Of a stretch of 64,000 bases of DNA, positions 312-9,946 are shown one piece after another (position 1 is the first letter of the stretch; each line of letters starts with the position of its first letter). Below the pieces are notes generated by a model. The model saw nothing but the letters and a program-made list of their open reading frames with translations, was not told the DNA's origin and did no database searches. The DNA comes from a virus. The DNA lies in the IMG/VR virus record IMGVR_UViG_3300020183_000012, positions 82,720-146,719 of that record, one strand, 5' to 3'. A program made the translations under genes and the position numbers.

Positions 312-472
312 AATACGACTACGAAGTAAGGGACTTCATCAATCGCCCAATTTACTCAGGCGGTCAATGGAAATACATTCAACTAAGTCCCGATGACTGC
401 ATCGCAAAGTTGATGCAATTCGTCAGAGATGAAACACCGAGCGATGAGTACCGCTCTGACGAACTTATTTGA
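263..472 (+). CDS. hypothetical protein
   Basis: 69-aa ORF, same strand as rest of array. Confidence 0.55.
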   Translation: MLHIFYNPSNDSFRVLKYDYEVRDFINRPIYSGGQWKYIQLSPDDCIAKLMQFVRDETPSDEYRSDELI

Positions 473-480
473 CACAACAG

Positions 481-525
481 GGTCAGTTTAGGTTGGTTGA
501 GGCTTGTTTAGATAAGGTATGATTT
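481..525 (+). ncRNA. solo GNY-NN pentamer run (candidate guide RNA of the RAMP-associated system)
   Basis: ggtca gttta ggttg gttga ggctt gttta gataa ggtat gattt: 9/9 pentamers G at position 1 and pyrimidine at position 3. Confidence 0.6.
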
Positions 526-550
526 TTCATCGGGTGAATAAACTAATGGC

Positions 551-916
551 ATGAGTCACCCTTACCATCACGCTCTGTCAAGTGTCAAGCGTTTCGGAGG
601 CACTTGGAGCGATTACATTGAGATTCACGAATGGTTCGATCAGACGAAGGCTCTTATCCCTGATGTTCGTCATCGGGCAATCCTTCATTCGTCTTTCGGA
701 ATCTTCCTGTGCCAACAGGTTTTCGGTGAGGTTCTTGTGCGGGATTCTGACGGAAAGCCCGTGCCTGTCCGTACCATTGCGGAGCAACACATTATTGAGG
801 ACATGGGATTTATCCCTACTCCTCAAGATTGGTTTGCGGGTATGCAGCCCGAGAAGTGGATGGCAAGAGGAGCAAAGCCTCTTTCCGCTGAAACAGAACA
901 AGTTTTGGCTGACTAG
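551..916 (+). CDS. DUF6915-like phage protein
   Basis: HPYHHAxSSxxxFGG, IHxWFDxTK, RHRAxxHxxFGI and AEQHIxED motifs; leaderless start 6 nt after TAAACT. Confidence 0.8.
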   Translation: MSHPYHHALSSVKRFGGTWSDYIEIHEWFDQTKALIPDVRHRAILHSSFGIFLCQQVFGEVLVRDSDGKPVPVRTIAEQHIIEDMGFIPTPQDWFAGMQPEKWMARGAKPLSAETEQVLAD

Positions 917-926
917 ACAATCTTAA

Positions 927-1000
927 GTTCCCGTGGCTCAGTTGGATAGAGCAGCCGCCTTCTAAGCGGCAGGTCGCTGGTTCGAGTCCAGCCGGGAACG
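927..1000 (+). tRNA. tRNA-Arg(TCT), no encoded CCA
   Basis: acceptor GTTCCCG/CGGGAAC, anticodon arm GCCGC-CTTCTAA-GCGGC, T-loop TTCGAGT. Confidence 0.95.
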
Positions 1001-1008
1001 CTTCTACG

Positions 1009-1034
1009 ATACCCGGTTCATAGCCGGGTATTTT
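1009..1034 (+). terminator. intrinsic terminator-like hairpin
   Basis: ATACCCGG-TTCATAG-CCGGGTAT followed by TTT. Confidence 0.6.
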
Positions 1035-1225
1035 AACTAATCCGGGGAATCTGCATTATTTTGCTTGCCTATTTGGTCTATTGGGCTATAGTTCCACCTC
1101 TGAAGAGATGATTCAAGGTGCATAGACTACATAGGTGAAAGTTGCATCCCGAGAATAGACTAATGGGGTAATAGTGCCGCACCGAGTGGCACAACAAGTT
1201 GAGCATTCGCACAAGGATACAAATA

Positions 1226-1864
1226 ATGCCTGTTGCAAGTCCTATTGATACCGGAACACGCACCTTGACTTTCATCATCAAGGGAATCGCACCGTTGATG
1301 ATGCACAACGGTCTGTTGGCTTCGCCCTTCTATTCGTATACCAAGCGTCTGAAGGAGATCACCAAGAAGCGCGGCAAGACCGAAGAGGATCATATTGAGG
1401 TGGCTAAGATTGAGTGGGAAGGCGGTCTTTACATGAGTAGCCGCGATGCGGATACTGGTCTTTGGTCTGAGGACTCGCATCCCATCATTCCCGCTGAGTG
1501 TCTTTACGCGACCCTTCTCGCGGGAGCAAAGGCTTTCAAAGGCGGGATGTCTTTCAAGGCAGGAGTGTTCATTACTCAATCGGCTCGTCTGCGCTACAAG
1601 GGAGACAACAAGATCAAGACTCTTGCTGACCTTCGTGGCAAAGATATTTTCATCGACTCCCGCCTCGTTGATGTAAACGGCAGCAAGGTGACGCGAACCC
1701 GCCCGATCTTCCACGATTGGTCGTGCGAGTTCAATGTTGAGTATGATCCGTCCGTTGTTGATGAAGCAGACCTTATCCGTTGGGTTCAAACGGGCGGTAG
1801 GCTCAAGGGTCTTTGCGAACTGCGTCCAACGATGGGTCGGTTCACCATTGAGTCTTACAAGTGA
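1226..1864 (+). CDS. stand-alone Cas7/Csm3-like RAMP-fold protein (Vipr-like)
   Basis: N-terminal strand IKGIAPLMMH, PIIPAECLYATL (compare Cas7/Csm3 PxIPGSSLKG), WSCEFNVEYD, C-terminal G-loop GLCELRPTMGRFTI; ACAAGGA RBS before ATG 1226; followed by pentamer array. Confidence 0.7.
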   Translation: MPVASPIDTGTRTLTFIIKGIAPLMMHNGLLASPFYSYTKRLKEITKKRGKTEEDHIEVAKIEWEGGLYMSSRDADTGLWSEDSHPIIPAECLYATLLAGAKAFKGGMSFKAGVFITQSARLRYKGDNKIKTLADLRGKDIFIDSRLVDVNGSKVTRTRPIFHDWSCEFNVEYDPSVVDEADLIRWVQTGGRLKGLCELRPTMGRFTIESYK

Positions 1865-1870
1865 TGCTCT

Positions 1871-2204
1871 CCTCTCTCCGCAGAAATGCGTAGAGAGGCT
1901 TTCTTATGGTCTGCTTTGGCAGGATACGGTTCGTTGCGCTCAGGAGTGGTCTGCTTCTCGCCTTCTACCGGGGAAACCCGGTTTGGAGGCTTTCTTTAGG
2001 TCGGATGCCCTCAGATTGGGCTAGTTTAGGTAGGGTGTGATGCGATGTGTTCCGCTTCTCGCCTTCTACCGGGGAAACCCGGTTTGGAGGCTTTCTTTAG
2101 TCTTGTTGGGGCATGATACGGTCAGGTTCGGTAAGGTCAGAAGAGGTATGCTTCTCGCCTTCTACCGGGGAAACCCGGTTTGAAGGCTTTCGTGGGTACG
2201 GCAA
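1871..2204 (+). ncRNA. array of GNY-NN pentamer runs separated by a conserved GAAA-tetraloop hairpin repeat
   Basis: repeat GCTTCTCGCCTTCTACCGGGGAAACCCGGTTTG(G/A)AGGCTTTC at 1953, 2054, 2150; related hairpin at 1871-1898; variable runs 1908-1952, 1999-2053, 2100-2149 are exact multiples of 5 nt. Confidence 0.8.
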
Positions 2205-2273
2205 AGTTGCATCCGTTGAATAAAGTAGTCTTGCCCAAGTGGGCAATCTCAATCATCTAGGAGCAGAACAACA

Positions 2274-3284
2274 ATGGCACATGGAATTAAGAATCGTGAT
2301 CGCGTCCTCATCGTTGGTGACCGTGGTTGGCACGGGTTGGGTCAGCAGATGGATTCGATCAGCATGACCGATCTCAAGGAGCAGTTCCCATACTCCTACG
2401 AGAAGGTTCCGATGTTCACCGCCGATGGCGTGGAAGTTGAAGGCTTCAAGGCTGTCATCACTACCGATGACAAGCAGAGCAACGGTGTCGTGGGTGACAC
2501 CTACGAGATCATCAACCTTGACGAGATGTTTGGTCTTGCTAACGATCTTGTTGTTGCTCACGGGACGGGTCGTGTTGTCAGCGCAGGAAGCCTTCACAAC
2601 CGCGAGGACTTTTTCGTTGATCTCGGCATCGACCGCGAGTTCCGCAGCGGTGAGGATGTCAACAAGCCATTCATCGGTATCACCAACAACTTCTGTGGTA
2701 TGCGCCACTTCGTTGCGGGAGCGCACATGAACAGGATCGTCTGCGCCAATACTCTGAATCTCATGCTCCGCGAAGTCAAGGGTTCTCCTCGCGCCATCAA
2801 GATTCGTCACACTAAGGGTGCATGGAACCGACTCGCTGAGGCGAAGCGCATTCTCGGCATCACCCTTGCCGCGTTCGACAAGGCTGATGAGGAGATGCAC
2901 CAAATGATCTCCAAGAAGATGACCGATGCAGAGATCGCTTCGTACTATGATGCCATCATGCCGATGACCAACATCCCGCCTCGCCGTGCAGACGAGAACG
3001 AGGAGCAGTATGAAGCCCGTGTTGAAACCATCGAACGCGCAAACCGCAAGGCTTCCCGTGTCCGTGCAGAGTGGAGCATGACGCTTGACAACGAGCGCGG
3101 CGTTCTTGGTCAGGAGCCGAACCTTTGGCTTGCGATGAACTCCGTGACCAAGTGGGTTCAGCATGAGAATCAGGTGAAGAACGAATCGACCAATCCCCTG
3201 ATCCGTGGTTGGAGCAACCGTTTTGCAACGGGCTTCAAGATGACAAACGAAGCCCATGACGCAGCATTGTCTGTGCTTGGGTAA
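2274..3284 (+). CDS. DUF932/DUF945-family phage/plasmid protein
   Basis: WHGLG near N-terminus, RIVCANTL motif, KIRHT, LWxAxNxVT. Confidence 0.85.
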   Translation: MAHGIKNRDRVLIVGDRGWHGLGQQMDSISMTDLKEQFPYSYEKVPMFTADGVEVEGFKAVITTDDKQSNGVVGDTYEIINLDEMFGLANDLVVAHGTGRVVSAGSLHNREDFFVDLGIDREFRSGEDVNKPFIGITNNFCGMRHFVAGAHMNRIVCANTLNLMLREVKGSPRAIKIRHTKGAWNRLAEAKRILGITLAAFDKADEEMHQMISKKMTDAEIASYYDAIMPMTNIPPRRADENEEQYEARVETIERANRKASRVRAEWSMTLDNERGVLGQEPNLWLAMNSVTKWVQHENQVKNESTNPLIRGWSNRFATGFKMTNEAHDAALSVLG

Positions 3285-3294
3285 ACCGAACTAA

Positions 3295-3385
3295 GGTTAG
3301 GTATGGCGAGTCTAGGTATGCCCTGCCATTGTATGGTCTGTCAAGTTCAGTCCCCTTCACCGGAGAAATCCGGTGGAGGGGTTTT
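3295..3385 (+). ncRNA. solo GNY-NN pentamer run plus GAAA hairpin
   Basis: 12 pentamers ggtta...gtccc, then CCCCTTCACCGGA-GAAA-TCCGGTGGAGGGG-TTTT. Confidence 0.7.
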
Positions 3386-3403
3386 GCCGATAAACATAAT
3401 GAC

Positions 3404-3474
3404 TGCCTTGTGGTGAAACGGTATCACGGGAGACTTTGGATCTCCTTTTCTTGGTTCAAATCCAAGCAGGGCAA
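3404..3474 (+). tRNA. tRNA-Gln(TTG), no encoded CCA
   Basis: acceptor TGCCTTG/CAGGGCA, anticodon arm GGAGA-CTTTGGA-TCTCC, T-arm CTTGG-TTCAAAT-CCAAG. Confidence 0.9.
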
Positions 3475-5266: not shown

Positions 5267-5370
5267 GTTCATCTCACGGGTCGCACTCTCGTTATAAGTG
5301 CAAACACTACGACCATCTGTAGCCTAAATGCTCAGGTGGTCATTTTACATCCGGCAAACAGGATAATAGT

Positions 5371-5565
5371 ATGAAGAAGCAAAGACAGAGCGAAATACGC
5401 AGGGCTTTGAGTCCAAACTCAGAATCCATCATGGCTTCATTTTGGTTTCTATGCGGATTCTTTGTGTTACTTTACATTTTCATAAAGACACCAATACTAA
5501 ATGTCATTTCACAGTATGTTCTTCATCCTATCAGGGATGCCCTGATGCCGGGGCCGCCGCCATGA
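5371..5565 (+). CDS. small membrane protein
   Basis: hydrophobic segment FWFLCGFFVLLYIFI. Confidence 0.55.
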   Translation: MKKQRQSEIRRALSPNSESIMASFWFLCGFFVLLYIFIKTPILNVISQYVLHPIRDALMPGPPP

Positions 5566-9884: not shown

Positions 9885-9946
9885 ACTCGTCTGAGCGAGT
9901 ATAAACAGGGTATTAGGCTCAGAGCGGCAGGGAAACCTGCTTTACC
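9885..9946 (+). ncRNA. pistol self-cleaving ribozyme
   Basis: P1 ACTCG/CGAGT, loop TCTGAG pairs with CTCAGA (pseudoknot), ATAAACAG linker, P2 GGTA/TACC, TTAGG, GCG, P3 GCAGG-GAAA-CCTGC. Confidence 0.88.

Follow-up and report, generated by a model that had tools for sequence, protein, structure and literature searches.

Gene and RNA features of the locus

The window, that is, the whole stretch of 64,000 nucleotides of viral DNA analysed here, carries at positions 3295-3385 of its + strand a run of five-base units closed by a GAAA hairpin, placed between a DUF932 gene and a tRNA-Gln gene. Its surroundings are described below in the terms of VIPR, a CRISPR-related, phage-borne RNA-guided DNA-silencing system reported in 2026 preprints (bioRxiv 10.64898/2026.04.26.720920, 10.64898/2026.04.26.720927, 10.64898/2026.10.15.759431). 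The parts of VIPR are a small ancestral RAMP (Vipr) and guide RNAs (vrRNAs); each vrRNA has 9-16 repeats, every one made up of a GGY triplet plus a hypervariable dinucleotide (NN), and then a structured 3' tail (bioRxiv 10.64898/2026.04.26.720920,.720927). The features of the locus are as follows.

481..525, + strand: additional vrRNA-like run of 9 pentamers, NN 83% A+T, without a recognisable tail
1226..1864, + strand: vipr gene, coding for a 212-aa Csm3/Cas7-like RAMP that is expected to polymerise on the guide
1865..1909, + strand: leader hairpin, a tail-like GAAA hairpin directly 3' of the vipr stop codon
1908..2196, + strand: array of three putative vrRNAs, each of 10-12 pentamers followed by a near-identical hairpin tail (repeat family D4)
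1955-1999, 2056-2100 and 2152-2196, + strand: array tails, modelled at ~45 nt each
2196..2228, + strand: copy of a promoter-like motif (repeat family D3), a putative promoter and likely start of a DUF932-vrRNA-tRNA transcript
2274..3284, + strand: DUF932 gene (PF06067, 1.7e-29), with the putative solo vrRNA in its 3' untranslated end
3295..3349, + strand: putative solo vrRNA guide region, 11 G-N-Y-N-N pentamers, assigned from phasing against shuffles and from orthologue comparison
3352..3381, + strand: putative solo vrRNA 3' tail, a 13-bp stem with a GAAA (GNRA) tetraloop
3382..3385, + strand: short U-tract after the solo tail (TTTT); termination possible, probably leaky
3404..3474, + strand: tRNA-Gln(UUG), just downstream of the solo unit

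The vipr gene lies 1.4 kb upstream of the solo unit and on the same strand as both the array and the solo unit. Three phased runs form the array right after the 212-aa gene, and the solo run begins only 10 bases past the DUF932 stop codon, again on the + strand. On its other side, tRNA-Gln starts 19 nt past the T-run and 22 nt past the stem. A fifth run (471-530, 9-11 pentamers) is located directly 3' of a 69-aa gene and passes without a gap into a copy of the promoter-like motif; neither of the two covariance models described below recognises a tail for it, and the L003 relative keeps a nearly identical NN string at this run with a changed scaffold. The first-pass annotation had proposed that guides are spread through early-gene 3' ends, and this layout agrees with it, the units following three early genes (the 69-aa gene, the RAMP gene and the DUF932 gene).

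The promoter-like motif recurs, with 13 copies within the window's first 10 kb, one of them after tRNA-Gln, and strong Shine-Dalgarno sites are observed in the same region. No full copy lies between the DUF932 gene and the solo unit, nor between the solo unit and tRNA-Gln. The likely precursor begins at the motif at 2196-2228 and covers DUF932, the vrRNA and the tRNA. The segment between the hairpin and tRNA-Gln (3386-3403) resembles the 3' half of the motif (ATAAAC...TAATGAC) and is conserved in the relatives L121 and L007; it could act as a weak tRNA promoter.

Regarding the neighbouring genes, DUF932 gives no PDB match by sequence search and is absent from the 80 other Vipr loci. No vap1 homologue is detected in the genome (tblastn with four vap1-like neighbours as queries, E<=0.01); a vap neighbour is not strictly required, since the preprint calls it 'typically' present. 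Pfam and PHROGs searches find no Cas family among the ten ORFs of the first 4.8 kb, and a CRISPR array was rejected on this ground together with the 5-nt periodicity of the would-be 'spacers'. Elsewhere in the window, a copy of the promoter-like motif is immediately followed by a Pistol ribozyme at 9885-9946 (Rfam RF02679, 55.6 bits). The contig, of which the window is positions 82720-146719, is sharply bimodal in composition, with about 50% G+C at roughly 50-105 kb and about 31% in the rest, which makes up some two thirds of it; this may reflect a mosaic phage or an assembly chimera. Both the VIPR locus and the copies of the promoter-like motif sit in the GC-rich part (window positions 1-21000 compared with 22000-64000).

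Periodicity and hairpin tail of the solo unit

Positions 3295-3354 can be read as 12 in-phase pentamers, with a pyrimidine at position 3 in 12/12 and G at position 1 in 11/12, the sole exception being pentamer 8, which starts with T. As the twelfth pentamer is already part of the hairpin stem, the guide proper comprises 11 pentamers (3295-3349), and either length, 11 or 12, falls inside the published vrRNA range of 9-16. The informative dinucleotides are TA AT GA TA AT CT AT AT CT AA CA, i.e., 82% A+T over the 11 guide dinucleotides. The first-pass annotation had described the same pentamer phasing, GAAA hairpin and NN string, and had called the string AT-rich; every detail was reproduced on re-reading the letters, and the end coordinate 3385 is correct for the hairpin plus U-tract.

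The phasing is readily distinguished from background. Runs with at least 9 of 10 phased G form 8 merged runs in the window, compared with 0.4 in shuffles, and five of the eight are found at 471-3354, all on the + strand and within 3 kb. At the stricter level of at least 11/12 G and at least 11/12 Y, the whole 146,719-base genome contains 5 qualifying runs, all of them on the + strand, and a stretch of 12 pentamers with at least 11 G and at least 11 Y is found in 0 of 200 block shuffles. A chance origin of the phased run is excluded. When the five runs are pooled, position 1 is G in 52/54 pentamers and position 3 is a pyrimidine in 52/54, positions 4-5 being near uniform; position 2 is G in only 25/54 (46%), so that the scaffold is G-N-Y and not GGY. 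The preprint allows a 'related consensus' to GGY (bioRxiv 10.64898/2026.04.26.720920,.720927). A role at the DNA level, such as curvature or iterons, was also considered and rejected: all runs are on the coding strand, 3' untranslated and linked to a RAMP across very different phages.

The hairpin at 3352-3381 consists of a 13-bp stem without mismatch, closed by a GAAA loop, and TTTT occupies 3382-3385. All five short words that the first-pass annotation listed as common to the solo unit and the array repeat are present (repeat copies ending at 1999, 2100 and 2196). Ten tails and leader hairpins from the window, L007 and L009 align to a 12-bp GNRA hairpin, with compensatory changes in 12/12 modelled pairs, in line with the first-pass remark that other paired bases co-vary. 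The tail fold is stable (-45 kcal/mol, z -3.98), and the solo site has no Rfam match at gathering thresholds.

A first covariance model, which included solo tails, matches the five copies of the window and no other site in the genome, the remaining 143 kb being free of further tails by this model. Because this model is circular as a test of the solo unit, a second one (R2) was built from array and leader tails only. R2 recovers the window solo hairpin with 26.2 bits (E 1.2e-4), and the solo hairpins of the window, L003, L007, L121 and L128 all score 26-28 bits (E about 1e-4 over 196 kb); its only other match on the phage's own genome has an E of 0.19. The genome scan with a covariance model, as the first-pass annotation had suggested, thus retrieves the solo tail at 26 bits even when the model is trained without any solo sequence.

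As regards termination, the GC-rich stem is followed by only 4 T, and a consensus terminator scan did not call it. No full promoter motif separates the hairpin from the tRNA-Gln gene that follows it, and transcription read-through is therefore needed. The hairpin probably terminates only partially and mainly caps the RNA.

The Vipr homologue and the conservation of the guide letters

The 212-aa protein has no Pfam family and belongs to PHROG 4652 (phrog_4652), of unknown function. Its AlphaFold model (AF2, from 12 homologues) reaches a pLDDT of 92, and the best PDB structure matches are all Csm3, a Cas7-type protein that forms the backbone of type III CRISPR complexes (Foldseek, E 4e-6, TM about 0.5). 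Homologues are present in 131 phage records, mostly Felixounavirus or Felix O1-type coliphages (tblastn). The protein shares 27% identity with wV8 gp95 (BLASTP, E 2e-24). In wV8, a small partner gene comes next after gp95, and the flanking GGY-NN runs end in annotated direct repeats; this locus has the published layout of GGY-NN runs with repeated tails, and the gp95 alignment reproduces the published residue numbers C173/D177/W178/R179.

The companion structure preprint reports one Vipr protomer per repeat (bioRxiv 10.64898/2026.04.26.720920,.720927); H17 and D177 recognise G1, R138 holds G2, which stacks on W178, and R179 forms part of the pocket that accommodates the pyrimidine. By pairwise alignment via gp95, H17, R138 and R179 correspond to conserved H27, R159 and R200 of the window protein, D177 is replaced by Glu198 and W178 by Leu199.

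An IMG/VR profile search yields 238 Vipr relatives, and period-5 G runs are located directly beside the gene, on the gene's strand, in 80/80 fetched IMG/VR loci. The more distant L010, L012 and L013, which are GC-rich, share 38-40% identity and lie in head-morphogenesis modules, also have period-5 runs. In one of these GC-rich relatives (L013:3930-4160 and 5364-5470), the guide runs are closed not by a hairpin but by a tRNA-like module, which has a GGTTCGAG T-loop. Direct IMG/VR searches with single proteins found no close relatives, which were obtained by exact-protein look-ups and one metagenome pattern scan. Three metagenomic contigs of relatives (L009, L014 and L015) end about 100 nt past vipr, within the first guide; this suggests that the repeated tails interrupt assembly and that contig collections contain fewer arrays than the phages themselves do.

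The substitution at the W178 position was compared with the scaffold, using window residues 198-200 and loci L016-L095. Where this position is aromatic (65 loci), position 2 is G in an average of 77-83% of pentamers; in the Glu-Leu-Arg loci (n=6) the average is 51%, and within this set the independent GC-rich lineage L022 shows 52%. In L039, which has Arg at this position, position 2 is U in 82%. In the singletons with Lys, Gln, Met or His, position 2 has remained G, which makes the link between residue and scaffold no more than suggestive: the G-loop residue at the W178 position may track scaffold position 2.

The solo unit is also found in relatives, after their DUF932 gene as in the window. 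Among the five close orthologues (window, L124, L128, L121 and L003), the numbers of variable columns at pentamer positions 1-5 are 1, 5, 5, 0 and 1, respectively, i.e., 11/33 scaffold columns vary versus 1/22 NN columns (Fisher p 0.018). The comparison of the window with the more distant L007 over nine shared pentamers gives the same picture, with 11/27 scaffold positions changed versus 1/18 NN positions (p 0.014). Scaffold positions 2 and 3 drift within G-N-Y, all six lineages retain the G/Y phase, and no class of positions is more conserved than NN; from one guide of the window locus to another, NN differs freely. In the L003 orthologue one unit has 6 nt, which breaks the register at that point. 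These comparisons give indirect support to the view that the NN letters carry specificity, and the conservation of NN fits a working guide with a conserved target. The guide-like reading offered by the first-pass annotation is borne out to this extent: the gapped NN code matches the experiments of the VIPR preprints, and the orthologues show selection on the NN letters.

The array is less stable than the solo unit. Its size ranges from 0 to 3 units among close relatives, L003-type phages retain the solo unit with no array after vipr, and the solo guide is more conserved than the array guides. In L007 (7951-8199), the first nine NN are kept and the run goes on for about 50 pentamers, which include internal repeats, until it reaches the tail; of the tRNA-Gln after the L007 solo unit only a 5' fragment is left.

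These data bear on the reading in which the hairpin is only a DUF932 terminator and the periodic run a decaying, non-functional relic of an array. A GC-rich 13-bp stem followed by T's at a gene end, together with the gain and loss of array units between close relatives, would be in line with it. A relic, however, would lose its G/Y phase and change NN as fast as the scaffold, and the opposite pattern is seen in the orthologues; moreover, the T-tract has only four residues, the hairpin fits the tail covariance model, and the tRNA gene 19 nt downstream, with no full promoter motif of its own, needs read-through. Such a relic is therefore improbable. A hairpin acting purely as terminator beside a run that is neither bound nor conserved in its periodicity is also the outcome that the first-pass annotation had named as fatal to its proposal, and in all six lineages the periodicity is kept.

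Target search and proposed function

According to the preprints, NN pairs with double-stranded DNA in such a way that every third target base is skipped, this base often being a codon wobble position (bioRxiv 10.64898/2026.04.26.720920,.720927). The NN string of the solo guide was searched against the genome of the phage itself, allowing 0 to 3 skipped bases, and compared with permuted-guide controls. The best match is 16/22 with a 1-nt skip (null maxima 17-19) and 16-17/22 with the other skips, none above the controls. A self-directed regulatory guide, one that silences a gene or promoter within the AT-rich arms of the same phage, would accord with an NN content of 82% A+T and with a genome of which about two thirds has roughly 31% G+C. 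This is nevertheless a most improbable reading, as all self matches are at or below the permuted maxima, and the natural targets reported for VIPR are rival phages and satellites, with no self-targeting at >=80% (bioRxiv 10.64898/2026.04.26.720920,.720927). The first-pass annotation had suggested that the guide may target an AT-rich promoter or genome and had proposed a gapped search that included the phage's own AT-rich region; that search finds no self match above permuted guides, and the part of the proposal that stands is a plausible AT-rich external target, of which no example was found. The 82% A+T code would point to an AT-rich target outside this phage.

Larger collections were scanned for exact patterns only, so that a target with few mismatches would be missed. 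In IMG/VR, NN 1-9 gives 22 matches and NN 3-11 gives 17; in 185,579 genomes, the full 11-NN pattern gives 0 matches and NN 1-9 gives 84. The numbers of flanking-NN matches of 80 core hits follow binomial chance (0:22, 1:27, 2:24, 3:6, 4:1), and the core matches are scattered over unrelated taxa with no convergence on one gene. Under this exact-pattern rule for the large collections, no target beyond chance is found in the own genome, IMG/VR or the 185,579 genomes. For the array guides, vr_2 and vr_3 have no IMG/VR match, and vr_1 (1908-1952) has a single match there, perfect over 9 consecutive NN with a 1-nt skip, in a cyanophage psbA gene (photosystem II D1; L224:13313-13338), where the skipped bases fall at codon wobble positions and 18/20 match overall. 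As about 2 random IMG/VR matches are expected, the vr_1-psbA match is only a lead and may be due to chance.

Solo vrRNAs are reported in satellites and in vipr-less phages, where they are aimed at rivals' VIPR machinery or act as decoys (bioRxiv 10.64898/2026.10.15.759431). The unit at 3295-3385 could be taken for one of these rather than for an ordinary guide of its own system, given that precedent, its position apart from the array and its higher conservation relative to the array guides. Against this, the phage has its own vipr, the solo tail is homologous to the tails of its own array, and in the VIPR loci of the fetched relatives the solo guide matches no better than controls; a role of this type is very unlikely.

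Collectively, the RAMP gene with its RNA-contact residues, the 11 pentamers, the array-homologous tail and an NN string that stays constant while the scaffold drifts make it highly probable, as far as sequence can tell, that 3295-3385 encodes a solitary VIPR guide RNA (vrRNA). Such a unit is of a kind already described, namely the VIPR vrRNA of the 2026 preprints. Its RNA would be made as the 3' end of the DUF932 transcript that starts at the motif 2196-2228. The hairpin would cap the 3' end and may partly terminate transcription, and RNase P cleavage (5' processing) of the downstream tRNA-Gln may trim the precursor and help to release the vrRNA. Following the preprints, one Vipr protomer would bind each pentamer, flip out and sequester the scaffold triplet and present the two N bases; the resulting filament would read double-stranded DNA with every third base skipped and form an R-loop triplex, by which transcription of a rival mobile element would be repressed.

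A more far-reaching reading is that the clade represents a distinct VIPR variant, in which the Trp-to-Leu change leaves base 2 unread and gives the G-N-Y scaffold, the AT-rich solo unit, retained even in the absence of the array, is the core guide of the clade and is directed at a conserved AT-rich target in a host or rival, and DUF932 is a new accessory partner; taken as a whole, this is a tentative and rather doubtful proposal. The published picture of how VIPR works is unchanged by this locus, and a target would give the biology. The locus adds a VIPR example from an uncultured large phage (contig at least 147 kb). The orthologue data point to selection on NN while the scaffold drifts, evidence that is independent of the methods of the preprints, and the solo unit provides a case of one guide being conserved while the neighbouring array turns over. 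There is, in addition, a hint that the G-loop residue co-varies with the scaffold base that it contacts (two lineages combine Leu with a relaxed base, and one locus combines Arg with U).

Comparison with known systems

The Type II VIPR of Escherichia phage SUSP1 and of a Pseudomonas fulva prophage resembles the window locus in its small phage-borne Csm3-like RAMP, with the equivalents of H17, R138 and R179 kept, and in its 9-16 five-base repeats, each composed of a fixed triplet and two free bases, with a structured 3' tail. In both cases, vrRNAs are arrayed as well as single and lie in intergenic DNA around the gene. The window differs in its G-N-Y scaffold (G2 46%) and in the replacement of W178 by Leu and of D177 by Glu. 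Its tail is a plain 12-13-bp GNRA hairpin, whereas the published SUSP1 tail is a pseudoknot. Furthermore, vap1 is missing, a DUF932 gene stands between array and solo unit, and protein identity is only 27%.

The orphan vrRNAs of F5 satellites and of VIPR-null SUSP1-like phages share with the solo unit the occurrence of a single vrRNA apart from any array. In contrast to the window, which has vipr and an array 1.4 kb upstream, these elements have no vipr and borrow the protein of a rival.

The crRNA-Csm3 complexes of Type III CRISPR (PDB 6IFL, 9G9B) are the best structural matches and share a backbone filament with one protomer per fixed step. VIPR is distinguished from them by a step of 5 nt instead of 6, by sequence-specific scaffold letters and by discontinuous reading of the guide, and the window locus has neither cas genes nor spacer acquisition. 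VIPR has been proposed to predate CRISPR.

TRAP, finally, is a ring protein that reads GAG/UAG triplets, is unrelated to RAMPs and uses no guide information. Its sites in the Bacillus trp leader RNA resemble the solo run in having about 11 triplets that recur roughly every 5 nt and to which a protein oligomer binds. A TRAP-like binding site was dropped as a candidate for 3295-3385: no TRAP homologue is present, the neighbouring gene encodes a Csm3-like RAMP, and the description in the VIPR preprint matches.
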